From the IMG/VR virus record IMGVR_UViG_3300009155_000035: 64,000 bases of DNA. One strand, written 5' to 3'. The DNA is from a virus (lineage: Duplodnaviria > Caudoviricetes). Shown piece by piece: positions 3,001 through 20,337 of this stretch. The notes beneath the pieces are model-generated. The model saw only the letters and a list, made by a program, of their open reading frames with translations. It did not search any database and was not told where the DNA came from. The position numbers were made by a program, and so were the translations under genes. Each line of letters opens with the position of its first letter. Positions within the stretch are counted from its first letter, which is position 1.

Positions 3001-3215
3001 CCACAGTAGATGGATTAGGCAACAAACTTGTGCGTCCAGTTTTGAATCCTGCCTACAACCCAGATATCAAGTATGTTCCACGAAGCAAACGTCCTGAGTG
3101 GGCGCCAGTGGGACTCATGGGCAAGTTGCGTTTGCGCAAAGGACAAGTTACAGGAGCTGGTTGGATCAAACTGCGTGACATCAGTGACACAGTAGAAGAG
3201 TGGTTGGTCAAGTAA
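3..3215 (+). CDS. Tail fibre protein (5'-truncated by window edge) with tail-collar domain and C-terminal peptidase G2-like intramolecular chaperone
   Basis: Frame is open from the window start. Repeated NTGVTxLxAGxGIS units; tail-collar motif GSIKIWGG..WAICDGSAVSRVTYATLFQRIGTTFGAGDGSTSFNLPDFRG; C-terminal GADYAEYFEWADGN...RPEWAPVGLMGKL. Confidence 0.88.
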   Translation, partial: WKTVSGLTVATTSPPDPATGDLWFNPTTSRIKVYGPTSTGLGWVPVNAVTVATTAPSAVIAGEIYFNSNTSQFFVYNGTGWSLIGPDGVSGFATTRWVSASLNDVGNVAHAVIECTVDGNIVAISSADNFTILPSQAPTGFTSLVEGINLSSTAVLNGVATRATKLETARGINGVPFDGTANITVVNLGELIAGSYLTGTNYSGAVNQTWAVDATSINTASKVVARDASGDFSARTIAANLIGNVSGIATNVSGVVAYQNGGTGYSSYSAGQILVGNGSGLVRAFVSGTSPIVVNSTANGIAISYTGGTGIGNVTSVGITAGPGIGVSGSPITGAGNILVTNTGVTQLNAGEGVSVNNVNGDVTVTNTGVKNIQAGTGISLSGTNANLTITNSGVTRLVAGTNISLSSSNGVVTITSTASGGGSSYTLPTASSTTLGGVKIGPGLGINTGVLTNTGVTSIIAGNNIIVNENNGSVTISSTGGGGGGTIVSVELAGSIKIWGGLTPPDNWAICDGSAVSRVTYATLFQRIGTTFGAGDGSTSFNLPDFRGKFGIGTSAGYPAGSTGGAADAKLIAHRHDFVDPATGARFFVSNDNLNRGTPGIPASWNTNNQGDTEPRINSPRLQNVNLPFIGEGPEDHGDASYYSWTSTVGEPATNSNLPPYLSANWIIKLNDAPVPGGGGGGGGGSGTVYAVTAGDGLLGGQITTAGTITVDSTVARLTVPQTFTSLKRFTNGIISQAYNFTTAGASIFYADPTLPGFQEPVVQIAVNEASATPYDYAHQFYNQRFVVEGSADPTTPGSNRPAGGAIIGIDYGNTGGGGVFGWHTNNIPGLGIGTGGYATNMTFTGAVFQGVTARPSSGDFVQIRSYSQNDVVFEVRGNGNVFYAGSVTAPGADYAEYFEWADGNPNSEDRVGISVALDGNRVRPAVQGDTVLGVVSANPSIVGDGAELAWAGQYLHDDWGRVLTEEYHAYNWTDEKGKHHSVASFEDTSGVPDSAVMTTVDGLGNKLVRPVLNPAYNPDIKYVPRSKRPEWAPVGLMGKLRLRKGQVTGAGWIKLRDISDTVEEWLVK

Positions 3216-3228
3216 ATTGCCAATATCC

Positions 3229-3258
3229 TTGACAAGGTATAAATAGATACTCTATAAT
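3229..3258 (+). promoter_or_regulatory. sigma70 promoter with a nested T4-late-like TATAAATA box
   Basis: TTGACA(3229)-18 nt-TATAAT(3253); TATAAATA at 3238-3245 lies in the spacer. Confidence 0.8.
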
Positions 3259-3269
3259 ATAACACAATC

Positions 3270-3383
3270 ATGAACTTATTCAGATCAATGATATCACCAC
3301 AAGGGTTACAAAAACCTTGTGGTTCATCGCCTGTTGAATCCTTCAATACATCATATATTGATCGTGACGCGGGGTCCAAGTAG
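3270..3383 (+). CDS. Putative 37-aa leader peptide (MNLFRSMISPQGLQKPCGSSPVESFNTSYIDRDAGSK)
   Basis: ATG directly after the promoter; stop codon lies inside an alternative hairpin upstream of a terminator. Confidence 0.5.
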   Translation: MNLFRSMISPQGLQKPCGSSPVESFNTSYIDRDAGSK

Positions 3384-3407
3384 AATTCGCTAGTACTATT
3401 CTACAAA

Positions 3408-3446
3408 GACCCTAGACTCGAAAGATTCTAGGGTTTTTTATTTTTT
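3408..3446 (+). terminator. Intrinsic terminator (attenuator terminator)
   Basis: GACCCTAGA / TCTAGGGTT stem followed by TTTTTTATTTTTT. Confidence 0.8.
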
Positions 3447-3450
3447 AACT

Positions 3451-3615
3451 ATGGAAACAACCAAAGAACAACGCAAACAACAACAAGAAAAGTACACACG
3501 TGAGCATACTTTGAGCCAAGATCAGCTCAAGAAACTGATCAAAGACAAGTTTGAACGTGCCAGTGCAATGTACTATTCGATAGCAAAGCGCGAATCTGTC
3601 CAGAATGACAGATGA
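3451..3615 (+). CDS. Hypothetical 54-aa Lys/Gln-rich protein
   Basis: ORF METTKEQRKQQQEKYTREHTLSQDQLKKLIKDKFERASAMYYSIAKRESVQNDR, read by hand. Confidence 0.55.
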   Translation: METTKEQRKQQQEKYTREHTLSQDQLKKLIKDKFERASAMYYSIAKRESVQNDR

Positions 3616-3790
3616 TGACCGCAAGTGTTAAACATGGTAACGAGGACCATACTGCGCACTATAAACATGCAGTGAACGGGCGGAGTCTCGGATTGAAACT
3701 GTGGCGGAAACGCAGGAGTAAAATGAGCAGTCAGGGGACGGCCCTGGCTATATTAAAGCATTTTGTAATCAGAATTCTTTAATATGGTTA
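3616..3790 (+). ncRNA. Candidate structured ncRNA, family unknown
   Basis: GC-rich non-coding island with several hairpins (ATGGT/ACCAT, GCG-GAAA-CGC, CAGGG/CCCTG) ending in a 15-bp stem 3748-3787. Confidence 0.4.
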
Positions 3791-3808
3791 AATAAAATTT
3801 GTGGATTC

Positions 3809-3837
3809 TTGACAAAACTCAGTAGAAACCATATAAT
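3809..3837 (+). promoter_or_regulatory. Consensus sigma70 promoter
   Basis: TTGACA-17-TATAAT; AAGGA RBS before ATG 3861. Confidence 0.88.
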
Positions 3838-3860
3838 ATATCATTTAACAAGGAAACTTT

Positions 3861-4760
3861 ATGACTACAACAATTACTATCAAAGACAAAGCAGTTAACA
3901 CTACATACCAAAATGTTACAGGTATCACTGGTGGTGCCGGCGCCGATGCCGCATTTGATGTTACAAAAACTAACGGAGTTTATTCCGTTGTATTAGATTC
4001 ACTAGCAGCCAGCGCAGGACATGGCTATGTTGCCGGCGATACAATTACTCTTGCTGGTACAGCATTGGGTGGCACAAGTGCTAACAACTTGATCATTACA
4101 GTTGCCACAGTTGGTACAGCAGGTAAGATTGCTACATTTGGTGTAGTAGGCACAGGCCGCATCGGTGATGGTACAGTTGATGTTGTTGTGGATGTAACAG
4201 GTACCACAGGTGTTGACACTTACACCATGGGTGGTGCTAGCACAGAATACACTCTTACTAAAACTGCCGACAATGTAAAGTTAGCCAGCACTTTGGTTAG
4301 CAACATGGAATTTAACCTTGCTGACCACGAGCGTGTTGTGTTCACAGACAAAGCCATTGCTTATGATGCCGCTGGTCGTGCTGGTGATGTATACGCATTG
4401 CTAGCAGCCGCATTAGGTACAGCAGATGTTACTAAAGCCTATGAAGGTGTCGGTATCTATCTTGCTGACGCAGGTTGGACCAACAAACAACTAGCAACAG
4501 CATTGTTGGCCACAGACACTTACAAAACTGACGCCGGTGGTGTAAGCGATGAAACATTCATCAAGCACGTTTATAAAAATGTTTTTGGTACTGATGCTAC
4601 ATTTTCTCAAGTTACAGCATACACAACATGGATGCACAATAGCAATTTAAGTCAAGCAGATGTTTTGGTGGCCGCAAGCGAATTGCCAGCGTTTGAAACC
4701 ACTATTGGCCTGGTTGGTCTTGCTACTACTGGGATCGAGTACACACCATACGTTGCTTAA
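3861..4760 (+). CDS. S-layer/RTX-like protein with DUF4214-like C-terminal domain
   Basis: Thr/Ala/Gly-rich N-terminus; ERVVFTDKAIAYD..AGDVYALLAAALG..SDETFIKHVYKNVFG resembles DUF4214. Confidence 0.6.
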   Translation: MTTTITIKDKAVNTTYQNVTGITGGAGADAAFDVTKTNGVYSVVLDSLAASAGHGYVAGDTITLAGTALGGTSANNLIITVATVGTAGKIATFGVVGTGRIGDGTVDVVVDVTGTTGVDTYTMGGASTEYTLTKTADNVKLASTLVSNMEFNLADHERVVFTDKAIAYDAAGRAGDVYALLAAALGTADVTKAYEGVGIYLADAGWTNKQLATALLATDTYKTDAGGVSDETFIKHVYKNVFGTDATFSQVTAYTTWMHNSNLSQADVLVAASELPAFETTIGLVGLATTGIEYTPYVA

Positions 4761-4783
4761 ACTTAGTTTAAACAAAGTGTCTG

Positions 4784-4808
4784 AAAGGTTGCAGTGCAAC
4801 CTTTTTTT
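4784..4808 (+). terminator. Intrinsic terminator
   Basis: AAAGGTTG/CAACCTTT stem followed by a T-run. Confidence 0.75.
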
Positions 4809-4824
4809 GCGTTAAATACACAAT

Positions 4825-6501
4825 ATGTTTGACAATTCTAAACCCAATATTATAATGCTCACTGACATAACTGATCCCATCTTGTTATCTAAGATGTTTG
4901 GGGTGAGTAAAGTTGCATGTGAATTACGCAACGCTGGATTTGAGGTTGCAGTAATAAATCACTTGCACGTTTTTAGTATTGACGAACTCAAAAACATGTT
5001 GTCGCAAATGGTGAATGAAAATACCTTGTTCATTGGGACAAGTCCATTTGTGTACAAGAATATCAGTTCCACTGTTGACTTGGGTTTTACCCACAACAAA
5101 GGTGGTGTCAGCTATGGACCCAAGGAGTGGGGATCGTTTTTGCCACATGGGTTGCATTACAATGCTGAGATCAAATCACTGGTCAAGGGTATCAATCCCA
5201 AGTGCAAATTTGTGCTTGGTGGCCCAGATGCCCAGGACCGTGAGTACGCTCGAGATTATGATTATGTAGTAATTGGTTATTCTGATAATTCAGTTATTGA
5301 TCTAGCACGTCACTTGGCATACAATGTGCCACTCTCAAACACTCGCAAAAGTTTGTTTGGTCCTGTTATCGTTGATGATCGTGAAGCCATTGGTTATGAT
5401 TTTGCCAACAGCATCATGCGTTATGAAAGCCACGATGTGATCATGCCTGGCGAAACACTAATGACTGAGATTGCACGTGGATGCATTTTCCAATGTGGAT
5501 TTTGTAGCTACCCATTGAACGGCAAGAAGAAACTGGATTTTATCAAGAGTGAAGAAGCATTGTACACCGAGTTCATGGACAACTATGAGCGGTGGGGTGT
5601 AACTCGTTATTTGTTTGTTGATGACACATACAATGACAGTGAACAAAAAGTTGAGATGATGCATCGTCTCAGCAAACGACTACCATTTAATCTTGAATAC
5701 TGGGCCACAATGCGTGTTGACTTGCTGGCAGCTCATCCTCATCACATTGACTTGCTGTATGAGAGTGGCTGTCGTGGTTACATGTTTGGTGTTGAAACAC
5801 TAAACGAAGAAACTGGAAAAATAATTGGCAAGGGCGGCAATCGAGAACGTATTGTCAAAGCCATCAACACTATAAAAGAACGCTATGGCAACAAGGTAAT
5901 GTTGCATGGAGGTTTTATCTTTGGTTTGCCCAAGGAATCCATTGATAGCATGCGTGAAACTGCCAATCGTTGTATCAGTGGCGACATCAAATTGGACAGC
6001 TATGTTTTTCATGCGTTTAGACTCATGCAACCTGGCAATAGCTATACCAGCAAATTTGACAAAGATCCTGGCAAGTATGGCTATCGTTTGCTAGGTGATA
6101 CTAAAACAGTTGACAGCAATGTTAGTGGATTTGATGCCAAAGCAGGTAATAGACTTGTCTGGGAAAACGACTACACCAACTACTATGAATGCGAAGCGTT
6201 GACCAAAGAGTTTATGGAGCTCAGTGCTTACAAAACCATGAGCAACAAGATCAATGGAACGTCAACATTTTGGTTTGCTGGCATGGGATTTAATCTAGAC
6301 TTCACTGCCAACAAAAATGTAAGTGAAGTAAATTGGCAAGTGGTTGATATACGCAAAAAACAACTAGCCAAACGATACAAAAATCAATTGTACAAAGAGT
6401 TGCAAATTTCTCCTATGCCTGTTACAATACCAACAAGCACCAAGGACAATGCTCAAATTATTGAACAAATACGCGATTTAGACTTAATGGTAAAACCCTA
6501 A
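4825..6501 (+). CDS. Cobalamin-binding (class B-like) radical SAM protein
   Basis: EIARGCIFQCGFC (CxxxCxxC); N-terminal FVLGGP B12-domain-like segment; FVDDTYN and FGVETLN motifs. Confidence 0.85.
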   Translation: MFDNSKPNIIMLTDITDPILLSKMFGVSKVACELRNAGFEVAVINHLHVFSIDELKNMLSQMVNENTLFIGTSPFVYKNISSTVDLGFTHNKGGVSYGPKEWGSFLPHGLHYNAEIKSLVKGINPKCKFVLGGPDAQDREYARDYDYVVIGYSDNSVIDLARHLAYNVPLSNTRKSLFGPVIVDDREAIGYDFANSIMRYESHDVIMPGETLMTEIARGCIFQCGFCSYPLNGKKKLDFIKSEEALYTEFMDNYERWGVTRYLFVDDTYNDSEQKVEMMHRLSKRLPFNLEYWATMRVDLLAAHPHHIDLLYESGCRGYMFGVETLNEETGKIIGKGGNRERIVKAINTIKERYGNKVMLHGGFIFGLPKESIDSMRETANRCISGDIKLDSYVFHAFRLMQPGNSYTSKFDKDPGKYGYRLLGDTKTVDSNVSGFDAKAGNRLVWENDYTNYYECEALTKEFMELSAYKTMSNKINGTSTFWFAGMGFNLDFTANKNVSEVNWQVVDIRKKQLAKRYKNQLYKELQISPMPVTIPTSTKDNAQIIEQIRDLDLMVKP

Positions 6502-6617
6502 TGCTTATAGTTAAGGCTGTGAAAGAAAGATGTCTAGCCAACTTCCCTAACTGCCAAGGGACGTACACTACCCCAATCCTCTGCAACCAATGGTTGAACT
6601 GGGTGGCACCCAGATGA
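6501..6617 (+). CDS. Putative 38-aa Cys/Trp-rich peptide (MLIVKAVKERCLANFPNCQGTYTTPILCNQWLNWVAPR)
   Basis: ATG overlaps the radical SAM stop codon (TAATG); too short for the ORF track. Confidence 0.4.
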   Translation: MLIVKAVKERCLANFPNCQGTYTTPILCNQWLNWVAPR

Positions 6618-6706
6618 GCATGATCAAGGGAAGTCAAACTCTAGGTTGGTACCCTAGGTAACATGGTTTGACTTTTAAACACACGGCAGTAGCCTTAACT
6701 ATAACT

Positions 6707-7252
6707 ATGACAGATACTTTAACATTGACATTTCGCAGTCATGAGTGCAACGGTTATCCAAAAGCACGGATATGCGTCAACGGAAATCTAGTGTGCGATC
6801 ACAGTTTTACACAAGATGTTGAAGATATCACAATTGCAATTGACAGTGTACAAGAATTCAATACACTGACCGTTGAACGCTATGGCAAAGAAAACCATCA
6901 CATGGTGTTTGAAAACAATCAAATCCTCAAGGATCAAGTTTTAGAAATCATAGGTGGCCGGGTGCGTAGCGCACGACTACCTGACTATATTTTCGACAAG
7001 CACTCGTGCTTTGAGTTTCATGGTCAAGTGCATCCAGGGTCGAGATACTTTGGGCCCAATGGCACGTGGACATTTAAATTTGGCTCGCCTGTTGTGACAT
7101 GGGCACTGGATCAAAAGATTTTGCAGGAAGCTGAGTACAATCAAGACTTTCAATATGCATGGTCCACTCAACTCGGGCCCGACAGTGCTGTTAACATATT
7201 AAAAGAGCTTGCCCAGGTCAGAGAAAAACTAGAAAAATCGGACATAAAATAA
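6707..7252 (+). CDS. Hypothetical radical-SAM-associated protein (paralog family, copy 1)
   Basis: CNGYPKARICVNG...YFGPNGTWTFKFGSP; similar to 49452-49955; ATG 6707 preferred over TTG 6668. Confidence 0.7.
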   Translation: MTDTLTLTFRSHECNGYPKARICVNGNLVCDHSFTQDVEDITIAIDSVQEFNTLTVERYGKENHHMVFENNQILKDQVLEIIGGRVRSARLPDYIFDKHSCFEFHGQVHPGSRYFGPNGTWTFKFGSPVVTWALDQKILQEAEYNQDFQYAWSTQLGPDSAVNILKELAQVREKLEKSDIK

Positions 7253-7253
7253 C

Positions 7254-8744
7254 ATGCGAGTATCTTGTTTAGCCATTGATGTTACCAATCCCGACAAGCC
7301 AGCGGCTTCGTTGGCCTTTATGTGCGGAGTATGTGAGCACCTTGACTTGGATTACCAAGCACTGAGCATCAACACCGAAATGCTGTTGCACACACATAGA
7401 GAAGACTACAATCGTGTACACAATGCACTCAAGCTAAACGACTTTGATAGACTACAACAACTATCAGATCCCATCGCAAACATCATACTAAAACAAATAC
7501 AAGACTACGGCCCAGACATAATCATGGTGTCGTTATTTTCTTGGATGCAGTTTCCGCTGGCAAAAATCATTCTTGATAAAATTCGTAGTAGTGGATGCTC
7601 GGCAGAGATCATTGCTGGCGGACCTGGTATTCAGTCCGAGGATACTGCCAAGGTCACAAATGGTAAAAAACTAGCACAGAAAAATCTAATAGACTATTAT
7701 GTACTTGGCGAAGGTGACGAAGTACTGGTTCGATTCTTGCAGGGAGAGAGAACACTGCTGGGACTCAATAGCCGCACTGACCGTTTTGGAGAATCTTGGG
7801 TTCCACAGATTGATGATCTAGATCGTCACTACGTCAAGCCAAGTTATAAAAAAATCAACCTTGATGTTTACCACAACCTTGAATACAAAGAAAAAGCAGT
7901 ACTCAGTGTCAGCACCAGCCGTGGATGTGTTCGGGCATGCAGTTTCTGCGATGTGATCAATGTGTGGCCCAAGTTTAGATACCGAAGTGGTAAATTGGTT
8001 GCCGAAGAGATTTTGCAATTGCACAAAGAAACAGGTGCTGTTAATTTTACCATTGTAGACAGTTTGATCAATGGCAGTTTAAAAAGTTTTAGAGACTTCA
8101 ATGATGAAGTTGTTTGTATAAAAGAAAAAACGCCCAGCCTAGAAAAAATGAGTTACAATGGACTGTTTATTGTACGTCCACGCAACACACACAAAGAAGA
8201 TTTGTTCAAGACCATGGCTGCCGCTGGATGTGAAAGCCTAGCAATTGGCGTTGAAACCGGCAGTGACAATTTGCGCATGCAAATGGCCAAAAAGTTTACA
8301 AACGATGACTTGGACTATCATCTTGAGATGTGTCAAAAGTACGGCATACGAAACACCATGCTGTTGTTTGTGGGTTATCCCACAGAGACACGAGATGACT
8401 TTGAGCAGACCTTGCGCATGCTTGAACGCTATCAACATTACTTAATTGATAACACAATTATATCGTTAAACTTTTCCGGAGTGTTTAGTATGTATACCAA
8501 CACACCAATATACAATGATGCGGCTCACCTGGGTATTGAAATTGTCGAAACTGACAGTCAACAAATGAAAATGTTGAATTGGGTCAACGTCAACAATCCA
8601 GATTTGACTGTTCGAGAACGCATCATGCGAGATCTTACATTTAGACAACGAGCTGCCGAACTAAGATACCCAATCCCAAATTCGGCCAGATACTTGGAAT
8701 ATCTGCAACACATTGATAAAAATTTTATTCCTGTGTCTGATTAG
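7254..8744 (+). CDS. Cobalamin-binding radical SAM protein
   Basis: SRGCVRACSFCD; IIAGGPG; GEGDE; IGVETGSD; paralog of 47996-49465. Confidence 0.88.
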   Translation: MRVSCLAIDVTNPDKPAASLAFMCGVCEHLDLDYQALSINTEMLLHTHREDYNRVHNALKLNDFDRLQQLSDPIANIILKQIQDYGPDIIMVSLFSWMQFPLAKIILDKIRSSGCSAEIIAGGPGIQSEDTAKVTNGKKLAQKNLIDYYVLGEGDEVLVRFLQGERTLLGLNSRTDRFGESWVPQIDDLDRHYVKPSYKKINLDVYHNLEYKEKAVLSVSTSRGCVRACSFCDVINVWPKFRYRSGKLVAEEILQLHKETGAVNFTIVDSLINGSLKSFRDFNDEVVCIKEKTPSLEKMSYNGLFIVRPRNTHKEDLFKTMAAAGCESLAIGVETGSDNLRMQMAKKFTNDDLDYHLEMCQKYGIRNTMLLFVGYPTETRDDFEQTLRMLERYQHYLIDNTIISLNFSGVFSMYTNTPIYNDAAHLGIEIVETDSQQMKMLNWVNVNNPDLTVRERIMRDLTFRQRAAELRYPIPNSARYLEYLQHIDKNFIPVSD

Positions 8745-8773
8745 TTGACTTTTTACATTTACTCTGTTACAAT
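8745..8773 (+). promoter_or_regulatory. sigma70 promoter with extended -10
   Basis: TTGACT-17-TACAAT with TG at the extended -10 position. Confidence 0.75.
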
Positions 8774-8779
8774 CTATCT

Positions 8780-8971
8780 ATGAAAGATATTATCACTGGT
8801 ATACTATACCTAGCAATGGGTTTGTTTTTTAATTACTACTCACGCAATTATGCGTTTGGTACATCACATTCCATGGGTCCCGGTTACTTTCCTGCTATCC
8901 TTTCAACAGGATTAATGATCCTGGGTATTTTGATTGCAAGCATTGGGGTTTATAAAAAATGGAAATCATAA
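8780..8971 (+). CDS. tctB: Short TctB-like membrane subunit (63 aa, two TM helices)
   Basis: MGPGYFP motif between two hydrophobic segments; stop overlaps the tctA start. Confidence 0.7.
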   Translation: MKDIITGILYLAMGLFFNYYSRNYAFGTSHSMGPGYFPAILSTGLMILGILIASIGVYKKWKS

Positions 8972-10443
8972 ACAATCTTGCACTGGGATTTAGTGTTGCA
9001 TCATCAATGCAGAACATGCTTTGGTGTTTTCTGGGGGTGTTCATTGGGACCATAGTTGGCATGTTGCCCGGAGTTGGTCCGCTGTCAGCCATTGCTATTT
9101 TATTGCCGCTGACCTATACTCTGGGAGATCCTGCCACTGGAATTATTTTCCTAGCTGGTATCTATTATGGTACGCAGTACGGAGGATCAACCACAAGTAT
9201 TCTGTTGAACATGCCCGGGGAGGCAGCGTCGGTGGTTACGACCATTGACGGGTACCAAATGACACGTCGTGGGCGCGGTGGTGCGGCCTTGGCAGTTGCG
9301 GCCCTGGGCTCATTTGTGGCCGGTACTTTGGCCACTGTGTTGGTCGCCTTGGTAGGCGAGCCATTGGCCAAAGTTGCATATATTTTTGGCCCAACGGAAT
9401 TTACAGCACTAATGACTCTGGGGCTAGTATCTGCTGTGGCACTCAGCAATGGTTCATTACTCAAAGGCCTAGGTGTGGTTATCATAGGATTTTTGCTGGG
9501 CATGGTTGGCGCCGACGTAAATTCTGGTGTTGTGCGATTTGACTTTGGCATTCCTGAATTATATGATGGGTTGCCTTTTCCAATCTTGGCCATGGGGGTA
9601 TTTGGACTCAGCGAAATTTTGTACAGCATGTTGCATGACAAGACTCCAAAAAAAGTAGAAATTCCCAAGATTTCAGACTTGTATCCAACAAGAGAAGAAC
9701 TCAACAAATCAGTGAAGCCTATTTTGCGTGGCACAGCCTTGGGATCATTTTTGGGATTGATTCCCGGGTCTGGTGGTATTGTAAGTTCATTTGCCAGCTA
9801 CGCAATCGAAAAGAAAATGTCAAAGACTCCCTGGGAGTTTGGCAAGGGTGCAATTGAAGGTGTTGCTGGTCCTGAAAGTGCCAACAATGCCAGCGCACAA
9901 ACAGGCTTTATTCCCATGTTGAGCTTGGGTATTCCCACTACCAGTAGCATGAGCTTGATGATGGCGGCACTGATGTCGTTTAACATACAACCAGGGCCCA
10001 TGGCAATTTCTAGCAACCCAACATTGTTCTGGGGATTGATTGTGTCTATGTGGATTGGTAACATCATGTTGGTGATTTTAAACTATCCCATGGTGGGTCT
10101 GTGGGTGCGCTTGTTGCAAATTCCAAGATGGGTTTTGTTTCCCACGGTGATTGTGATTTGCGTTGCCGGGACATACTATATCAACAATCAATGGTTCTCA
10201 GTACTGCTGTTGATACCGTTTACTATAATTGGATATCTACTCAAAGCACTGGAATGTGAACCGGCTCCAATGGCCATGGGTTTTGTAGTTGGCGCACTTT
10301 TTGAGGAATACTTGAAACGAGCCCTGTCAATCTCCGAAGGATCTTGGATGATATTCTTAAATAGTAATATTTCATTATCTTTGCTGAGTCTCACTGCGAT
10401 CTTGACAGCTTATGGGATTTATGCTAAACTACGTAAAAATTAA
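8959..10443 (+). CDS. tctA: Tripartite tricarboxylate transporter permease TctA
   Basis: GTIVGMLPGVG, GIYYGTQYGGSTTSILLNMPGE, GVAGPESANNA, LSLGIP; very hydrophobic 494 aa. Confidence 0.93.
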   Translation: MEIINNLALGFSVASSMQNMLWCFLGVFIGTIVGMLPGVGPLSAIAILLPLTYTLGDPATGIIFLAGIYYGTQYGGSTTSILLNMPGEAASVVTTIDGYQMTRRGRGGAALAVAALGSFVAGTLATVLVALVGEPLAKVAYIFGPTEFTALMTLGLVSAVALSNGSLLKGLGVVIIGFLLGMVGADVNSGVVRFDFGIPELYDGLPFPILAMGVFGLSEILYSMLHDKTPKKVEIPKISDLYPTREELNKSVKPILRGTALGSFLGLIPGSGGIVSSFASYAIEKKMSKTPWEFGKGAIEGVAGPESANNASAQTGFIPMLSLGIPTTSSMSLMMAALMSFNIQPGPMAISSNPTLFWGLIVSMWIGNIMLVILNYPMVGLWVRLLQIPRWVLFPTVIVICVAGTYYINNQWFSVLLLIPFTIIGYLLKALECEPAPMAMGFVVGALFEEYLKRALSISEGSWMIFLNSNISLSLLSLTAILTAYGIYAKLRKN

Positions 10444-10457
10444 GAAAGGAGGGCACT

Positions 10458-11045
10458 ATGCCAGCAGTATTTTTGGTCAGCGACACGCACTTTGGTCACG
10501 CTGGTGTGTGCCGCTTCACTCATCCCAACGATCCTGAAGTAAAATTACGTCCATGGACTGATCCAGATGAAATGGATGAGGAGATGGTTCGACGTTGGAA
10601 CGACCGTGTGCGTCCCAATGACAAAGTTTACCATTTGGGAGATGTTGTTATTAATCGCCGAGCATTAAAGACAGTGGGTCGGTTGAACGGGGACAAGGTG
10701 TTGATCCGTGGCAATCATGACATCTTCCGCGACAATGAGTATCGTGAGTACTTTCGTGAGTTGCGAGCATACCATGTCATGAACGGAATGATTCTTTCAC
10801 ATATTCCTATTCACACAGCAAGTTTGGGTAGGTTTGGTGTTAACATTCACGGACACTTGCACGCCACTCGTGTGATGTATGAAGATCCGTTTGACGCATT
10901 TGAGTCCAAGATTGATACACGCTATCATTGTGTATGTGTGGAACAAACTGATTTTGCACCTATCTTGTTTGAAGATGTGATCAAGCGCATCGAAGCAGAA
11001 GGTGGTAGTGTGGGTTTTAGGAACGGCAACGGTCCTACAATGTGA
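10458..11045 (+). CDS. Calcineurin-like metallophosphoesterase
   Basis: SDTHFGH, HLGDV, RGNHD, HGHLH motifs. Confidence 0.88.
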   Translation: MPAVFLVSDTHFGHAGVCRFTHPNDPEVKLRPWTDPDEMDEEMVRRWNDRVRPNDKVYHLGDVVINRRALKTVGRLNGDKVLIRGNHDIFRDNEYREYFRELRAYHVMNGMILSHIPIHTASLGRFGVNIHGHLHATRVMYEDPFDAFESKIDTRYHCVCVEQTDFAPILFEDVIKRIEAEGGSVGFRNGNGPTM

Positions 11046-11049
11046 CAAT

Positions 11050-11124
11050 CTGGCCATAGTATAATGGATAATACAGTAGCCTTCTAAGCTATCAATCTAG
11101 GTTCGATTCCTAGTGGCCGGGCCA
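11050..11124 (+). tRNA. tRNA-Arg(TCT)
   Basis: Cloverleaf by hand; loop CT-TCT-AA; encoded CCA. Confidence 0.92.
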
Positions 11125-11214
11125 AGTTATTCAGAATGTGTCAACTAAACTTGATACTAAAGCGTTATATATGTGTAGGATATAAATTCTACGTAACATA
11201 GAAGGAAACTTATC

Positions 11215-11430
11215 ATGAAATTAGTCGCAACATTGATCGCTACTGCATTTGCAGTTACCGCTTTCGCCGCAGAACCTGCCAAGAAAGAAGAAAAGAAAGC
11301 TGATGCCAAGCCTGCTGTTACAGCACCGGCCCCTGCCGCTACTGCGCCAGCAACGCCTGCTAAAAGTGAGTCTGCTAAGAAAGACGCACCTAAAGCAGAC
11401 GCCAAGGCCGCTACTCCGGCTGCGAAGTGA
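11215..11430 (+). CDS. Small secreted Ala/Lys/Pro-rich protein
   Basis: Signal peptide MKLVATLIATAFAVTAFA followed by a low-complexity tail; GAAGGA RBS. Confidence 0.7.
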   Translation: MKLVATLIATAFAVTAFAAEPAKKEEKKADAKPAVTAPAPAATAPATPAKSESAKKDAPKADAKAATPAAK

Positions 11431-11591
11431 TCTAGATGAAGGTGACTTTGTTATCGATGACGAAGTCGCCCTTGGTCGTAATCTAAGAGCACGTAATTTT
11501 GGTAAAATAGTTCATGAAAATATTGTTTTATCAGATTATGTAAATTTTAGATTATGGCTAGCTAGACAATTAGCAATGAAAAAGTATGATG

Positions 11592-11619
11592 AAGTCTGGG
11601 GGTAAAATCCCAGACTTTT
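11592..11619 (+). terminator. Intrinsic terminator
   Basis: AAGTCTGGG/CCCAGACTT stem followed by TT. Confidence 0.6.
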
Positions 11620-11626
11620 CTAATTT

Positions 11627-11716
11627 GGAAGTGTGGCTGAGCCTGGTTTAAGGCAGCAGTCTTGAAAACTGTCGCTCCGAAAGGAGCCGTGAGTTCGAAT
11701 CTCACCACTTCCGCCA
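11627..11716 (+). tRNA. tRNA-Ser(TGA)
   Basis: Loop CT-TGA-AA, long variable arm, G73, CCA. Confidence 0.93.
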
Positions 11717-11733
11717 ACTTATAAGGATTGTTA

Positions 11734-12294
11734 ATGAAGATTTCCATCACTGGACACACACAAGGAATTGGTCAAGCATTATACCAAGGTTGGGTCAAAC
11801 AAGGTCATGATGTACGTGGCTTTAGCCGAAGCAACGGATATGATATTTCCACTGACCAGGGAATTGACCAAATTGTCAACGAGTGTGTGGACTGTGATGT
11901 GTTTGTTAACAATGCATATGATGCCAGCAAGAGAGATAGCCTTGCTGGATTTGCGCAAACTGTTCTACTGTATAAATTATGGGTTGCCTGGCAAGGACAA
12001 GACCGGACCATTATTGCTGTTGGTAGTAGAATGGTAGATGCTGTTCAGCCAAGAGTGTATCCATATCTCGCACACAAGACAGCATTGGATACTGCTGTTC
12101 ATCAACTTAGACTAGTGCAACAAACTAGTCCCAAAATTTTGTATGTCAAGCCCGGCTTGATTGACACCAACATGGTTGCAAATGTCACAGGATATAGCAA
12201 GTTGGATCCACAAGAAATCTTTAACGCATGTGATTGGGCACTCAACAACCCGTCGCAAATACTTGACCTAAGCATAGGGTCTTTAGGAATCTAG
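11734..12294 (+). CDS. Short-chain dehydrogenase/reductase
   Basis: TGHTQGIG, FVNNA, YLAHK (YxxxK). Confidence 0.8.
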   Translation: MKISITGHTQGIGQALYQGWVKQGHDVRGFSRSNGYDISTDQGIDQIVNECVDCDVFVNNAYDASKRDSLAGFAQTVLLYKLWVAWQGQDRTIIAVGSRMVDAVQPRVYPYLAHKTALDTAVHQLRLVQQTSPKILYVKPGLIDTNMVANVTGYSKLDPQEIFNACDWALNNPSQILDLSIGSLGI

Positions 12295-12323
12295 TTGACT
12301 GTAAGTGACAATGGTGTTATACT
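12295..12323 (+). promoter_or_regulatory. sigma70 promoter P1 of the tRNA/ncRNA operon
   Basis: TTGACT-17-TATACT. Confidence 0.75.
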
Positions 12324-12396
12324 AGAGTTAAGTTAGAAGCATAAGTGTTCCTAATGTGCAACTGGAAAATGTTGTAAAAATACAACAAAAAAACAG

Positions 12397-12425
12397 TTGA
12401 CACAAAAAAACAAGTGTCGTACAAT
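12397..12425 (+). promoter_or_regulatory. sigma70 promoter P2 of the tRNA/ncRNA operon
   Basis: TTGACA-17-TACAAT preceded by an A-rich UP-element-like tract. Confidence 0.85.
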
Positions 12426-12435
12426 TGATACTTGC

Positions 12436-12463
12436 GCTGATAACTCAGCAATGTTCTTTAAAA
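12436..12463 (+). promoter_or_regulatory. boxB-like hairpin plus boxA-like antitermination site
   Basis: GCTGA-TAAC-TCAGC, then TGTTCTTTAAAA (rrn boxA consensus TGCTCTTTAACA). Confidence 0.6.
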
Positions 12464-12500
12464 ATTTGCATTTCATGTAGTGATCCCGGGCTTGCTCGGG

Positions 12501-12765
12501 CACTATATGTAAACACACTAAGGTTACCTACACTGTTAGGGGTGAACGAAGGGCGATTGCGTAGAAGAAATTCTCGGCCTTGATACCCATGAAGCAGGAA
12601 GCCCGAAATAGATACCTGAGCCGATACCAAAGGCAACGAGTGGTTGAAATAGGGAACAACTTCCGGGAATGCGACAGGCTAAACAGTAGGCAGTAATGAG
12701 AAAAAACGTAGGTCGCCAGGTGGTGCTGAGATTTATATCCTTCCTTAATGTGTTTTCATATAGTG
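12501..12765 (+). ncRNA. Candidate ~220-nt structured RNA enclosed by a 23-bp stem
   Basis: CACTATATGTAAACACACTAAGG (12501-12523) pairs with CCTTAATGTGTTTTCATATAGTG (12743-12765) with 2 mismatches; no convincing ORF. Confidence 0.55.
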
Positions 12766-12770
12766 AATAT

Positions 12771-12846
12771 GGTCTTAAAGTGTTCATGGACGCACGACGG
12801 CTTGTCACGCCGTAAGAGTGGGGATCGTTACCCCCTAAGACCGCCA
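12771..12846 (+). tRNA. tRNA-Asp(GTC)
   Basis: Loop TT-GTC-AC; atypical T-loop ATCGTTA; CCA. Confidence 0.85.
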
Positions 12847-12925
12847 AGTTTTGAGAGTCACATCGCCTGGACACTTCCCTCGGTGACGAAGCACTAGGTC
12901 CTGCAACCGTGACTCTCCTTTATTT

Positions 12926-13000
12926 GCTCGATTCGTCTATCGGTTAGGACATCTGGTTTTCATCCAGGCAAGAGCGGTTCGACTCCGCTATCGAGTACCA
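12926..13000 (+). tRNA. tRNA-Glu(TTC)
   Basis: Loop TT-TTC-AT; CCA. Confidence 0.92.
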
Positions 13001-13005
13001 AACAT

Positions 13006-13091
13006 GGAGATGTGGCAGAGCGGTTGATTGCACCAGACTGTAAATCTGGCCCCTAAAAAGCACGGTGGTTCAAATCCATCCATCTCCACCA
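13006..13091 (+). tRNA. tRNA-Tyr(GTA)
   Basis: Loop CT-GTA-AA, long variable region, CCA. Confidence 0.92.
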
Positions 13092-13094
13092 AGA

Positions 13095-13292
13095 ACGTTC
13101 CGGGTGTCTCCGGATAGTGTGACCCACACGATGAGAAGTAGTGTGACAACTACGGGTGGTAGTCTTCGAACCCAAAGGCCGCTGGCAATGCGAGAACGGT
13201 CCCTGTCGGGAAGCGGGTGGAAGGAGTGTGTGATGGGTATGATAGCGTCATATCTTGATACTCTATAATTACCGCCGGGGGATGCAGAGCAT
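13095..13292 (+). ncRNA. Candidate ~200-nt multi-hairpin RNA
   Basis: GC-rich run of hairpins (TCCGG/CCGGA, GTGTG/CACAC, GTAGT/ACTAC, TATGA/TCATA) directly after tRNA-Tyr. Confidence 0.45.
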
Positions 13293-13297
13293 TTTTG

Positions 13298-13455
13298 TTT
13301 TTATAGTCAAGCATCGATACAGGTATCGTTGTGGGACGCCACAACTATGCGGGCCTAACTGTGCGAGGAACAGGTCCTGACATAACTGCTATTCGCTTGT
13401 CAGAGGAAGCACCTTTGTTGACAAATCGGCATCTCTCGATGCTTGACTATAAAAA
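13298..13455 (+). ncRNA. Candidate RNA enclosed by a perfect 20-bp inverted repeat
   Basis: TTTTTATAGTCAAGCATCGA / TCGATGCTTGACTATAAAAA flanking ~118 nt with internal hairpins. Confidence 0.55.
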
Positions 13456-13458
13456 TAT

Positions 13459-13536
13459 GTAGGGATGGCAGAGTGGTCAAATGCAACGGACTGCAAATCC
13501 GTAAAGCCGTGAGTTCAAATCTCACTCCCTACTCCA
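13459..13536 (+). tRNA. tRNA-Cys(GCA)
   Basis: Loop CT-GCA-AA; U73; CCA. Confidence 0.92.
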
Positions 13537-13544
13537 ATCAACAC

Positions 13545-13645
13545 GGGAGAGTTGCTAATATTGGCCTTAGGGCGAGCCTTATAAACTCGTAAGCACTGTC
13601 TAGATAAGGCAGCGAATGTGGGTTCGATTCCCACCTCTCCTACCA
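13545..13645 (+). tRNA. Atypical tRNA with TAT anticodon (nominally Ile/AUA) and a long variable arm
   Basis: 7-bp acceptor GGGAGAG/CTCTCCT, canonical T-arm, loop CT-TAT-AA, extra arm CTGTCT..AGGCAG, A73, CCA; 101 nt. Confidence 0.75.
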
Positions 13646-13661
13646 TTAAGTAAGTTTTAAC

Positions 13662-13736
13662 CGCGGGGTACGTCAGCGGTAGACTAGCGGGCTCATAACC
13701 CGAAAGACGGAGGTTCGATTCCTTCCCCCGCAACCA
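13662..13736 (+). tRNA. Initiator tRNA-fMet(CAT)
   Basis: C1:A72 mismatch and three G:C pairs next to the anticodon loop. Confidence 0.92.
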
Positions 13737-13741
13737 TTTGT

Positions 13742-13815
13742 GTATCCCTGGTGTAATGGCAGCATCGCAGTCTCCAAAACTGTTGGTCGGGGTTCGAGTC
13801 CCTGGGGGTACGCCA
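13742..13815 (+). tRNA. tRNA-Trp(CCA)
   Basis: Loop CT-CCA-AA; CCA. Confidence 0.92.
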
Positions 13816-13820
13816 TGTTT

Positions 13821-13894
13821 GGGCTGGTAGTTAAATGGGATAACGGTGGCTTTGCAAGCCTCAGTTGGGAGTTCGATTCTCCCTCGGTCCACCA
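13821..13894 (+). tRNA. tRNA-Ala(TGC)
   Basis: Loop TT-TGC-AA; G3:U70 identity pair; CCA. Confidence 0.9.
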
Positions 13895-13917
13895 AACATA
13901 TGATATATAAGGATATT

Positions 13918-14352
13918 ATGTTGCACTTAATCAAATCTGTTTCTGATTCGTTCGTTGAGTGTCTTAAGCAAGATCCTGTGCGCCCGCATATTCCTGAATC
14001 ATTGAGAGTTGGTAACAACCGCGATATCTTTGTGTCGCGAAAGGAAGATGCAGGTGCTCGAGCAGTTACTTGTGTAAGTTACCAACAACGCATCCCGGAA
14101 AGTGAAAATGAACTTTTCGAGGATACTGACACCCCCGAGGTTGTAGTTTTCTATACTATATGGAGCTATGAACCCGGTGCCGGTCGTGATTTAATCTTTG
14201 AGGCTCGAGACTGGATTCTAAAAAATCGCCCCGAGATCAAAAGATTTATAACCTTGAGTCCACCAACTGAAATGGCTCGAAGGTTTCACCTAAAGAATGG
14301 TGCTATAGTACATCGTGTCAATCAGAGCACAGTGAACTACGAGTACCTTTGA
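13918..14352 (+). CDS. Hypothetical protein, possibly GNAT-like fold
   Basis: ATG 13918 after AAGGA; VFYTIWSYEPGAGRDLI...TLSPPTEMARRFHLKNGA. Confidence 0.65.
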   Translation: MLHLIKSVSDSFVECLKQDPVRPHIPESLRVGNNRDIFVSRKEDAGARAVTCVSYQQRIPESENELFEDTDTPEVVVFYTIWSYEPGAGRDLIFEARDWILKNRPEIKRFITLSPPTEMARRFHLKNGAIVHRVNQSTVNYEYL

Positions 14353-14358
14353 CATTAT

Positions 14359-14434
14359 TGGGGGTTCGCCAAGTTGGTAAGGCATCGGATTTTGATTCCG
14401 ACATGCGGTGGTTCGAATCCATCACCCTCAGCCA
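14359..14434 (+). tRNA. tRNA-Gln(TTG)
   Basis: Loop TT-TTG-AT; CCA. Confidence 0.92.
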
Positions 14435-14455
14435 AATTTTACAATGGAGAATGAC

Positions 14456-14476
14456 ATGAAACGTACCAAACGTTAG
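14456..14476 (+). other. Mini-ORF MKRTKR* with RBS, followed by a hairpin
   Basis: GGAG RBS, ATG AAA CGT ACC AAA CGT TAG, then GTCATAGAC/GTCTATGAT stem. Confidence 0.35.
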
Positions 14477-14536
14477 TGTCGTCATAGACTTCCGTAGGTC
14501 TATGATTGGCACGTAAAATCAATTAATACGACTTAT

Positions 14537-14612
14537 GGGACTATAGCTCAGCCGGTAGAGCAGTGGACTTTTAATCCATTGGTCGCGAGTTCGAATCTCG
14601 CTGGTCCTACCA
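14537..14612 (+). tRNA. tRNA-Lys(TTT)
   Basis: Loop CT-TTT-AA; CCA. Confidence 0.93.
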
Positions 14613-14697
14613 TATAAAAACACATTACCAACGGTATCGCTTGTAGCAAAGCCCGTGCCAAAGTAGTCAGTCTAGGATAGTGTGTTTCTATATGGTA
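14608..14697 (+). ncRNA. Long-stem element closing a 52-nt loop
   Basis: TACCATATAAAAACACATT / AGTGTGTTTCTATATGGTA. Confidence 0.4.
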
Positions 14698-14724
14698 TTT
14701 TAGAAATAAGTATTAATGAGTTTT

Positions 14725-14799
14725 GCCCTTGTAGCTCACTGGTAGAGCACTCGCCTTGTAAGCGATAGGTAGTTAGTTCGATTCTAACCTGGGGCACCA
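14725..14799 (+). tRNA. tRNA-Thr(TGT)
   Basis: Loop CT-TGT-AA; CCA. Confidence 0.92.
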
Positions 14800-14805
14800 A
14801 AATTT

Positions 14806-14879
14806 GCGGGGTTCGTATAGTGGTAATACCTCAGCCTTCCAAGCTGATGCGGAGAGTTCGATTCTCTTACCCCGCTCCA
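14806..14879 (+). tRNA. tRNA-Gly(TCC)
   Basis: Loop CT-TCC-AA; U73; CCA. Confidence 0.93.
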
Positions 14880-14887
14880 TAGTTTAT

Positions 14888-14963
14888 TCCCTAGTAGCTC
14901 AGAGGTAGTAGCAACGGACTGTTAATCCGTGTGTCGGTGGTTCGATCCCACCCTGGGGAGCCA
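14888..14963 (+). tRNA. tRNA-Asn(GTT)
   Basis: Loop CT-GTT-AA; CCA. Confidence 0.93.
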
Positions 14964-14969
14964 AGTTTT

Positions 14970-15046
<77 letters not shown>

Positions 15047-15056
15047 GTTTTAGTAT

Positions 15057-15134
15057 ACCGCCTTAGCTCAATTGGATCAGAGCACTGTGCTACGAACGCA
15101 GGGGTTAGGAGTTCAAATCTCTTAGGTGGTACCA
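15057..15134 (+). tRNA. tRNA-Arg(ACG)
   Basis: Loop CT-ACG-AA; CCA. Confidence 0.92.
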
Positions 15135-15144
15135 AAGTTTACAA

Positions 15145-15234
15145 GGTGCGGTCCCATAATGGTATTGGAGCGGATTGCTAATCCGTCGAGTGGTGAAAGC
15201 CGCTTTCTGAGTTCGAGTCTCAGTCGCACCGCCA
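15145..15234 (+). tRNA. tRNA-Ser(GCT)
   Basis: Loop TT-GCT-AA; long variable arm; G73; CCA. Confidence 0.92.
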
Positions 15235-15240
15235 GTGTTT

Positions 15241-15315
15241 CGGTCTTTGGTGAAATGGATATCATGCTTGGCTTCGAACCAAGCGGTGTGGGTTCGATTC
15301 CTGCAGGACCGGCCA
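15241..15315 (+). tRNA. tRNA-Arg(TCG)
   Basis: Loop CT-TCG-AA; CCA. Confidence 0.9.
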
Positions 15316-15354
15316 AGTTTTATGTATATAAGTATATACACTCAAGGGGAAATC

Positions 15355-15654
15355 ATGTCACATGACGCAGACAAGTTTAAAAACAGCAAACGTAGACTCA
15401 AAGACGATAACGCTGTAAAAAAACAAGTTAAAATTGCCAAAGCGCATGGGTTAACTGACAATGATATTGCAGTAAAAGAGCCGCATCGCATGGTCAAACA
15501 TCATGCCATGGATTGCGGTCAACCCGGCTGCATGCTGTGCGGGAATCCGCGCAAGACATTTAACGAGCTTACTGCTCAAGAAAAACGTTTGTTTCAAGAC
15601 TTGGAAAAAGTCACAGACAAGCATTCAAATGGCACTATTCCCCCAGAAGAATAA
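15355..15654 (+). CDS. Hypothetical basic protein with a His/Cys cluster (possible Zn ligand set)
   Basis: ATG 15355 after AAGGGG; HHAMDCGQPGCMLCGNPRK. Confidence 0.7.
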   Translation: MSHDADKFKNSKRRLKDDNAVKKQVKIAKAHGLTDNDIAVKEPHRMVKHHAMDCGQPGCMLCGNPRKTFNELTAQEKRLFQDLEKVTDKHSNGTIPPEE

Positions 15655-15659
15655 ATCAT

Positions 15660-15735
15660 GGTGTTAGTAGTGTAGTGGTCTGCACATTGCTCTGTGAAAG
15701 CGAAGGTATGGGATCGTTCCCCATCTAACACCCCA
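15660..15735 (+). tRNA. tRNA-His(GTG)
   Basis: G-1:C73 pair; loop CT-GTG-AA; T-loop ATCGTTC; CCA. Confidence 0.88.
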
Positions 15736-15741
15736 AAATTT

Positions 15742-15817
15742 AGGAAGTTAGCTCAGTTGGTAGAGCATCTGCCTTACAAGCAGAATGTCATCGGTTCGAT
15801 CCCGGTACTTCCTACCA
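15742..15817 (+). tRNA. tRNA-Val(TAC)
   Basis: Loop CT-TAC-AA; CCA. Confidence 0.93.
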
Positions 15818-15829
15818 TTAATATAGTTT

Positions 15830-15905
15830 GGCGACGTAGCTCATCAGGTAGAGCGACAGACTGAAAATCTGTGCGTGGCTGGTTCGAGTCCAGCCGTTGC
15901 CACCA
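15830..15905 (+). tRNA. tRNA-Phe(GAA)
   Basis: Loop CT-GAA-AA; CCA. Confidence 0.93.
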
Positions 15906-15911
15906 GGTCAT

Positions 15912-15985
15912 AGCCGGTTAGCTCAAAGGTAGAGCACTCGACTGATAATCGAGAGACACAGGATCGATACCTGTACTGGCTACCA
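15912..15985 (+). tRNA. tRNA-Ile(GAT)
   Basis: Loop CT-GAT-AA; T-loop ATCGATA; CCA. Confidence 0.9.
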
Positions 15986-16136
15986 AAATTTTTTCTGGAA
16001 CAAAGTTAGCTCTAGGCCGATTTAACACTGGGTCTGGCACAAACTTTTGACTAGTGGTATAGGATGTTCTAGGAGTATACGGTAGCCTTGCCGATTTCGT
16101 ATACAAGATATCTGTATATGTGTTATAATCAGTCAT
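15918..16136 (-). CDS. Possible 72-aa antisense ORF under a late-type promoter
   Basis: TAAATA at 16146-16141 lies 4 nt before the ATG; the ORF fills the non-tRNA gap and runs antisense into tRNA-Ile. Confidence 0.3.
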   Translation of the reverse strand: MTDYNTYTDILYTKSARLPYTPRTSYTTSQKFVPDPVLNRPRANFVPEKILVASTGIDPVSLDYQSSALPLS

Positions 16137-16147
16137 AATGTATTTAA

Positions 16148-16230
16148 GCGGACGTGGCGTAATTGGTAGCCGCGCTGGTCTTAGAAGCCAGTCTTTCGGG
16201 GTGTGAGTTCGAGTCTCACCGTCCGCACCA
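16148..16230 (+). tRNA. tRNA-Leu(TAG)
   Basis: Loop CT-TAG-AA; variable arm; CCA. Confidence 0.92.
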
Positions 16231-16236
16231 AAATTT

Positions 16237-16323
16237 GCGAGTGTGGTGAAATAGGTAGACACAAGAGACTTAAAATCTCTCGCCCGAAAGGGCGTGCCGG
16301 TTCGATTCCGGCCACTCGTACCA
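16237..16323 (+). tRNA. tRNA-Leu(TAA)
   Basis: Loop CT-TAA-AA; variable arm GCCC-GAAA-GGGC; CCA. Confidence 0.93.
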
Positions 16324-16330
16324 TTGTTTT

Positions 16331-16496: not shown

Positions 16497-16514
16497 TTTT
16501 TTTGTAAATACTGC

Positions 16515-16709: not shown

Positions 16710-16710
16710 C

Positions 16711-19863: not shown

Positions 19864-20337
19864 ATGAAAATAAATGTAGAAGAAGTTGTTAGATTTATTC
19901 AGGCGCAAGGCCTGGGCACACGGGTATACCTTGGAGCTGATTCTGACCGCTACAAAGTAGATGGCACCTGGTGGGCCGAATACACAGTGGCCGTTGTTGT
20001 ACACATCAATGGCAAAAACGGTTGTAAAATTTTTGGGGAAGTATCTAGAGAACGAGACTATGATCAAAAGGCAAGTCGTCCAAGCATGCGTCTTATGAAC
20101 GAAGTATATCGTGTAAGCGATATGTTTCAAAGGCTTGCGCCTGCGCTGGAAGATCTCGAAGTTGAAGTTCACTTGGATATTAACCCAAATGAAATGTACG
20201 GCAGTTCATGTGCTGTACAACAGGCAATTGGATACATTCGCGGTACTTGCAATGTTATTCCAATGGTCAAACCAAATGCATTTGCCGCAAGCTATGCAGC
20301 CGATAGACTGAAAAGTCTCAAAATATCTAATGGATAA
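19864..20337 (+). CDS. RNase H-like protein (YkuK/DUF458-like)
   Basis: YLGADS...RLMNEV...EVHLDIN...FAASYAADR. Confidence 0.75.
   Translation: MKINVEEVVRFIQAQGLGTRVYLGADSDRYKVDGTWWAEYTVAVVVHINGKNGCKIFGEVSRERDYDQKASRPSMRLMNEVYRVSDMFQRLAPALEDLEVEVHLDINPNEMYGSSCAVQQAIGYIRGTCNVIPMVKPNAFAASYAADRLKSLKISNG

Follow-up and report, generated by a model that had tools for sequence, protein, structure and literature searches.

Three long RNA stems in a 64,000-nt stretch of phage DNA (IMG/VR record IMGVR_UViG_3300009155_000035, Duplodnaviria; Caudoviricetes; hereafter the window) are members of a widespread phage RNA stem family, and a fourth is only a divergent member. Its members are AU-rich RNA helices of 17-20 bp that keep one orientation, mostly begin at the CCA of a tRNA, and were shown to surround exchangeable non-coding inserts, and they are found in the tRNA operons of freshwater phages. 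We propose that the stems are probably processing stalks, at which host RNase III would cut 4 nt past the CCA, freeing the tRNA ends and releasing the insert. The window comes from a large phage genome, and its + strand has ~30 tRNA genes in the interval 11050-18362. The four stems, here called S1 to S4, and the tRNA joined to S4 are located as follows:

3748..3787 (helix extends 3745-3790), + strand: S1, family stem with no insert, profile score 22.0
12501..12765, + strand: S2, family stem with a 219-nt insert, profile score 26.5
13296..13457, + strand: S3, divergent 22-bp stem with a 118-nt conserved RNA, z -7.3
14608..14697, + strand: S4, canonical family stem with a 50-nt insert, profile score 34.9, z -5.4
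14537..14612, + strand: tRNA-Lys(UUU), found by ARAGORN and Rfam, whose CCA forms pairs 1-3 of S4

A first-pass annotation of the window had reported four 5′ arms, at 3748, 12503, 13302, and 14611, sharing one motif. All four exist as quoted, each with a 3′ partner, and all match ATA(T/G)NNAA(A/G)CA with a spacer of always exactly 2 nt. The reported overlap of the 14608 stem with the end of tRNA-Lys also held, as this tRNA ends in the CCA that opens the 14610 arm. This 11-mer, a post hoc pattern, occurred 12 times in the window vs. 4.0 ± 2.0 expected, and seven of the matches were arms of these stems. Still, the claim of a motif common to all four stems had to be narrowed. Scored with a paired-arm profile built solely from other, related phages, the 14610, 12503, and 3748 stems ranked as the top three, compared with a maximum of 16.4 in 20 shuffles, whereas the 13302 arm failed the profile and shares positions 3-5 and 9-13 only.

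Helix strength gave a different ordering. Within the 64 kb, the helices ranked first (13296-13317/13436-13457, 118-nt loop), second (12501-12523/12743-12765, 219-nt loop), third (14608-14627/14678-14697, 50-nt loop), and seventh (3745-3765/3770-3790, 4- to 10-nt loop). The score of the 13296 stem was reached by none of 100 shuffles of the 3000-19000 region, and those of the other stems were reached 5, 10, and 22 times. As bare helices, only 13296-13457 is clearly beyond chance, but as a motif, the stems are beyond chance.

The family extends well past this window. A looser pattern search recovered at least 228 distinct cassettes in 133 phage loci, and the exact pattern occurred in at least 120 stretches in viral contigs. 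Across 185,579 prokaryote genomes, the strict motif was found in one contig, a 1.5-kb piece of a metagenome-assembled genome with nine tRNAs and three such stems, which is probably mis-binned phage DNA. To avoid circularity, we also fetched loci by protein and asked for any 18-bp helix; one with at least 15 of 18 positions paired started on the CCA of 72 of 1274 tRNAs in these loci vs. 0 of 496 controls. Docking was concentrated on three kinds of tRNA, with a stem on 47/116 of the Lys(UUU), Glu(UUC), and Gln(UUG) tRNAs compared to 18/1158 other tRNAs, a contrast inflated by shared ancestry. Arms paired with their own partners at 13.4 of 14 positions and with swapped partners at 8.3, and every arm position showed more than one Watson-Crick pair type across cassettes. 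On the tRNA strand, 107 copies had U.G at position 16 and a single copy had C.A. Because the arms covary and their orientation is fixed, the stems are RNA helices of the tRNA strand rather than DNA terminal repeats. No literature giving the arm sequences or describing the family was found, in a search that largely left out subscription papers.

The first-pass annotation had also suggested a modular cassette of constant stem and variable cargo, and this was borne out by ~167 unrelated inserts (counted as clusters; 30-293 nt, median 53) within the conserved stem. Copies in one locus hold unrelated inserts, inserts are shuffled between slots and phages, and the S4 arms recur in related phages around unrelated interiors. 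An ATG open reading frame (ORF) of at least 10 codons occurred in only 19/167 inserts, and Shine-Dalgarno words showed no enrichment. Many short inserts fold barely better than shuffles (mean z -0.47). tRNA T-loop words were present in 20/167 inserts vs. 0.8 expected. At the gathering cut-off, Rfam 15 found only tRNA, tmRNA, and one separate GOLLD RNA in the window, five cassette-rich loci, and the cultured phage BUCT-ZZ01, and matched no insert or stem. By-eye likenesses of inserts to c-di-GMP-I, TPP, SRP, 6S, and small ribozymes were dropped, as Rfam gave them no support, and a CsrA/RsmA sponge was rejected because the inserts hold no excess of ANGGA (32 vs. 44 expected). It is possible, if somewhat doubtful, that the inserts are decoy or mimic RNAs directed at host tRNA-binding or tRNA-cleaving proteins. 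Some may also be among the 10,006 viral RNA candidates reported from IMG/VR and RNA viruses by Fremin 2023 (PMC10690425).

If the stems are processing stalks, host RNase III would bind the insert-side half of the helix, with pairs 8-11 as the proximal box, 13-14 as the middle box, and 16-17 as the distal box. It would cut the 5′ arm between positions 7 and 8 and the 3′ arm at an offset of 2 nt, after which the outer 5-7 pairs, too few to hold, would come apart. The upstream tRNA would be left with its CCA plus ~4 nt, which an exonuclease would trim. Because the next tRNA starts at the base pairing with position 2 in 43 cassettes, an adjacent downstream tRNA would be given a 3-nt leader for RNase P to remove. 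The insert itself would be freed as a small RNA with a 10-bp closing stem. The stalk could then serve as a standard socket through which any structured RNA can join the operon. S3 may be a functionally similar, sequence-divergent stalk, and tRNA-processing enzymes could also set its ends. For the other three stems, the register model predicts the following cuts, given between bases:

3754/3755 and 3782/3783, + strand: predicted RNase III cuts in S1
12509/12510 and 12758/12759, + strand: predicted RNase III cuts in S2, with a predicted 249-nt product
14616/14617 and 14690/14691, + strand: predicted RNase III cuts in S4, with a predicted 74-nt product and a 4-nt trailer on tRNA-Lys

These predictions come from comparison with published determinants for Escherichia coli RNase III (PMC1540722, PMC3867540). 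We scored all 18 registers on 61 distinct structure-selected stems, with seven helices enclosing tRNA-His-like genes left out. The best register placed proximal position 4 at pair 8 and matched 3.82 of six determinants, vs. 2.92 for the next. RNase III substrates need 11 or more base pairs of helix to one side of the cut (PMC1540722), and pairs 8-18 supply them in all four window stems and in the family. The proximal box calls for AU-type pairs at its positions 2 and 3, with no GC at 2. We found AU or UA at stem position 10 in 67/72 stems and AU at position 9 in 49/72; in a second set of stems, AU was found in 33/34 and 31/34, respectively, and proximal positions 2 and 3 are AU-type in all four window stems. 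The distal box calls for UA/UG pairs 9-10 bp from the cut, and here position 17 was UA in 54/72 stems and position 16 was UG in 32/72. The second set, 34 stems located via the upstream RNA described below and partly overlapping the first set, repeated this pattern, with G on the 3′ strand at position 16 in 32/34 and UA at 17 in 27/34.

Within the window, the distal box is full in S1 and S4, half present in S2, and lacking in S3. The pairs of S1 are AU at 9 and 10, GC at 11, UG at 16, and UA at 17, and those of S4 are A.C at 8, AU at 9-11, CG at 14, UG at 16, and UA at 17. Set in this register, the T7 R1.1 site (NC_001604) agrees with the stems at pairs 9, 10, 14, 15, 16, and 17, its G variant agrees at 11 as well, and position 8 is a mismatch. 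Neither six near-complete stem-bearing phages nor BUCT-ZZ01 yielded an RNase III gene, and the enzyme would therefore be the host's. Host RNase III had been one of two actors named in the first-pass annotation, and the register-specific match and the lack of a phage-encoded enzyme speak for it, while cleavage and small-RNA release are steps that we infer. Putative membership among RNase III substrates is supported by the sequence of the stems.

Several observations weigh against RNase III as the actor. The determinant rules are those of E. coli, and the presumed host is betaproteobacterial. A column permutation gave the best register only p = 0.06 on six determinants; the lower value of p = 0.005 was obtained with a middle-box CG pair that was added after the data were seen, and the tested stems are related by descent. 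S2 is without the distal UG (C.A at position 16), and S3 fits no register well, reaching 4/7 determinants in its best. At pair 11 (proximal position 1), where the optimum is GC, we found GC in 10/72 and 13/34 stems of the two sets and otherwise mostly AU, and a GC/CG pair at position 8, an in-vitro catalytic antideterminant, occurred in 12/72 and 10/34 stems and in S3. Between the cuts, positions 6-7 mostly hold AU-type pairs, whereas E. coli sites in vivo favor GC-rich pairs there (PMC6212723); this preference is no requirement in vitro and was not observed in Bacillus subtilis. Finally, the stem sequence is more invariant than RNase III requires.

This invariance, over hundreds of copies, would also fit a stem that acts as an uncut handle, binding a host or phage protein (possibly a non-cleaving RNase III) that stabilizes or localizes the insert, with RNase P, 3′ exonucleases, or RNase E making the ends at the flanking tRNAs. 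The poor match of S3-type stems to RNase III rules points the same way, many 3′ arms end at the next tRNA's first base, so that RNase P alone could set that end, and those copies that have GC at position 8 could be bound without being cut (PMC1540722). Yet the upstream CCA and the initial bases of the following tRNA are tied up in the helix, which something must open. The conserved pairs also coincide with the RNase III boxes, and a Ro60/TROVE gene was not found in five relatives. We therefore consider an uncut handle rather unlikely. A reading at the DNA level, with the arms as terminal inverted repeats or recombination sites that move the inserts, could draw on the inverted repeats with variable interiors at tRNA 3′ ends and on the shuffling of inserts between slots and phages. 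However, miniature inverted-repeat transposable elements (MITEs) would be expected in either orientation and in multiple copies with the same interior, whereas here orientation is fixed, with the strand-specific U.G at 107:1, and copies within one genome hold different inserts. The S3 insert is retained in phages whose arms around it differ in sequence, and the arms covary as pairs. A MITE-like or attC-like role is thus largely refuted and, in our judgment, very unlikely; homologous swapping might still be helped along, as a side effect, by the short arms that cassettes share. Three of the four helices were individually reachable by shuffles, as might be expected if the stems were chance AU-rich hairpins or only insulated the folding of neighboring RNAs. 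Position-specific conservation, a fixed wobble and mismatch, exact CCA docking, and at least 228 copies argue against this, making it the least probable of the readings considered, and a chance origin is refuted.

The second actor named in the first-pass annotation was a phage nuclease, with an RNase H-like gene of the window as candidate:

19864..20337, + strand: YkuK/PF04308 RNase H-like gene, Pfam E 7e-15

RNase H1 acts on RNA/DNA hybrids. The YkuK/PF04308 family is uncharacterized (PMC3985635), which leaves room for a protein that recognizes and cuts the motif, and the gene lies in or near tRNA arrays and is found in 5/6 near-complete stem-bearing phages. On the other side, the family groups with RNase H1 (PMC3985635). 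A protein and Pfam search found no family gene in the 364-kb stem-bearing phage G002, and the cultured phages DLP_6 and X1 carry it inside tRNA arrays with no family stem within 12 kb. The family also occurs in Bacillus and Thermotoga, and no relative of the protein was found in PDB. Because gene and stems are decoupled, albeit in these three phages only, the 19864 protein is an improbable cutter, and the earlier suggestion was not borne out. We judge from these gene distributions that it is probably not part of the stem system.

To return to the stems themselves, S1 is 9 kb away from the tRNA operon and nearly loopless, and directly follows a structured RNA:

3622..3747, + strand: conserved structured non-coding RNA before S1; 46 distinct homologues, covariation, no Rfam match

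Its covariation score was 0.405 vs. 0.142 for shuffled alignments, with two-sided changes at 10/13 pairs. A long stem lies behind this RNA in 37/40 homologues and is nearly always of the family type with an insert, and S1 is therefore the empty, insert-less version of a slot that is normally filled. The possibility that 3748 is a hairpin unrelated to the family was ruled out by the profile score and this slot comparison. A 56-codon ORF (3612-3782) that overlaps the RNA is probably spurious. In relatives, the RNA often heads tRNA operons, and it may contain a pseudoknot. Further upstream, 3229-3448 holds a perfect sigma-70 promoter, a 38-codon ORF (3270-3386) ending just past GGGGTCC, and an AGACCC hairpin with a T-run, a layout resembling an attenuator-like leader and repeated in L022 (7353-7575) and L198, two other loci. 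Between S1 and the tRNA operon, 4825-10443 contains two radical SAM genes and a TctA-family transporter gene.

The tRNA operon opens with the following elements:

12397..12466, + strand: operon head, with a sigma-70-type promoter at 12397-12425 (11/12 consensus), a hairpin at 12436-12449, and a boxA-like element at 12452-12466

Antitermination through boxA operates in bacterial rRNA operons. We take 12452-12466 to be an rrn boxA-like element, going by E. coli rrn leaders. The boxA-like word occurred at 61 distinct sites in related loci, often downstream of a promoter, which suggests that the phage tRNA operon may borrow host rRNA-type antitermination. S2 is the first module of the operon, 6 nt 5′ of tRNA-Asp. 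The core of its insert (GGTTACC..TAGG..CATGAA) is present at 15 distinct loci, the window and 14 others, mostly within such a stem; RNAalifold found no consensus fold for this core in an alignment that was too gapped. For the S3 insert, 10 homologues showed two-sided changes at 19/33 pairs. Their closing stem is long and AU-rich, varies in sequence, and often begins on the CCA of tRNA-Glu/Gln, and S3 itself ends 1 nt 5′ of tRNA-Cys. Close homologues of the S4 insert occur at two loci, L155 and L218, and show one compensatory change. Right after tRNA-Tyr, 13092-13295 holds a further RNA of ~200 nt with matches in ~16 related loci, two-sided changes at 19/41 pairs, and no Rfam match. The window alone holds three conserved RNA families absent from Rfam.

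Two kinds of stem-closed element were noted outside the family proper. Seven loci (L053:1447, L067:5771, L075:4299, L080:4075, L081:5340, L086:4977, and L087:5273) have a long helix 3′ of tRNA-Lys around a whole tRNA-His-like gene, and these genes have an extended acceptor stem. Within the window, an element at 16324-16512 starts from the CCA of tRNA-Leu(UAA), is closed by different arms (GCAAACA type), and has ends conserved in L083 and L004.

Among known systems, the T4 stable RNAs species 1 and 2 are rnaC and rnaD. The T4 tRNA cluster resembles the present operons in that small non-tRNA RNAs are co-transcribed with phage tRNAs and host RNase III is in the pathway. E. coli RNase III has been reported to mature T4 tRNAs (PMC4810235), a precedent for the stems. 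However, T4 has two fixed RNAs, whereas here one stereotyped stalk carries ~167 unrelated inserts, and blastn found no similarity to cultured T4-like phages beyond tRNAs. The T7 early RNase III hairpins (R0.3, R0.5, R1, R1.1, and R1.3) and the E. coli minimal substrate uR1.1 (PMC1540722) are similar helices, and those of T7 likewise punctuate phage polycistronic RNA. They differ in having 3- to 5-nt loops and separating mRNAs, compared with the 30- to 290-nt structured inserts, CCA start, and short outer half found here. Bacterial rRNA operon stalks, processed by RNase III (PMC4810235), share a promoter, a boxA-like element, long-range stems around functional RNA, and interspersed tRNAs, but enclose rRNA rather than small variable inserts. 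Structured RNAs among phage tRNA genes are also known from GOLLD RNA (RF02032) and other tRNA-array phage non-coding RNAs (PMC12286853), yet no insert or stem in the scanned loci matches GOLLD; a GOLLD RNA does lie within a cassette-bearing tRNA operon (L096 4804-5263). Finally, YrlA (RF02553), a Y RNA-like molecule, has a terminal stem with a tRNA-like module, recalling the T-loop words in the inserts, but no insert matches RF02553 and the TROVE gene was found in 0/5 relatives.

RNase III stalks in phage transcripts are of a known kind; the novelty lies in the repeated use of a single stereotyped, CCA-docked stalk for more than 160 structured RNAs that are unrelated to each other. As a more speculative extension, which we regard as fairly unlikely, freshwater phages could maintain a plug-in platform for small RNAs in the tRNA operon: an RNase III socket carrying more than 160 fast-changing effector RNA families, including tRNA mimics, that counter host defences which target tRNAs or sense RNA. 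If so, docking on tRNA-Lys(UUU), -Glu(UUC), and -Gln(UUG) would couple the release of those tRNAs to decoy release. Many phage RNA genes that lack annotation could be located by using the stalk as a search tag, which also predicts their ends, and the family bears on why large phages retain extensive tRNA arrays. Because cuts are predicted to the base and one carrier is in culture, the mechanism can be tested directly.

That carrier, BUCT-ZZ01 (ON615601, locus L223), is a cultured phage with family stems at 1558-1695, 4955-5041, 5042-5179, and 10975-11097 of L223. It was found via the 19864 protein search rather than a nucleotide search; when the operon, the S3 module, and the S1 region were compared by blastn with 50,697 cultured phages, only tRNAs matched, or nothing did. 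Relatives of the window phage in IMG/VR comprise genome stretches of up to 160-364 kb. The window encodes a permuted transfer-messenger RNA (tmRNA) of betaproteobacterial type at 20654-21119, and because of this type, we infer a betaproteobacterial host. BUCT-ZZ01 also carries a betaproteobacterial-type permuted tmRNA (L223 11053-11453), together with ~26 unannotated tRNAs and the family stems, and given this tmRNA, its recorded cyanobacterial host (Synechococcus) may be worth rechecking. Elsewhere in the window, Rfam identified tRNA-like genes missed by ARAGORN at 13545-13645 (98 nt, with a long variable arm) and 17023-17097, and conserved non-coding spacers with homologues in related phages lie at 12846-12926, 14435-14536, and 21125-21270.

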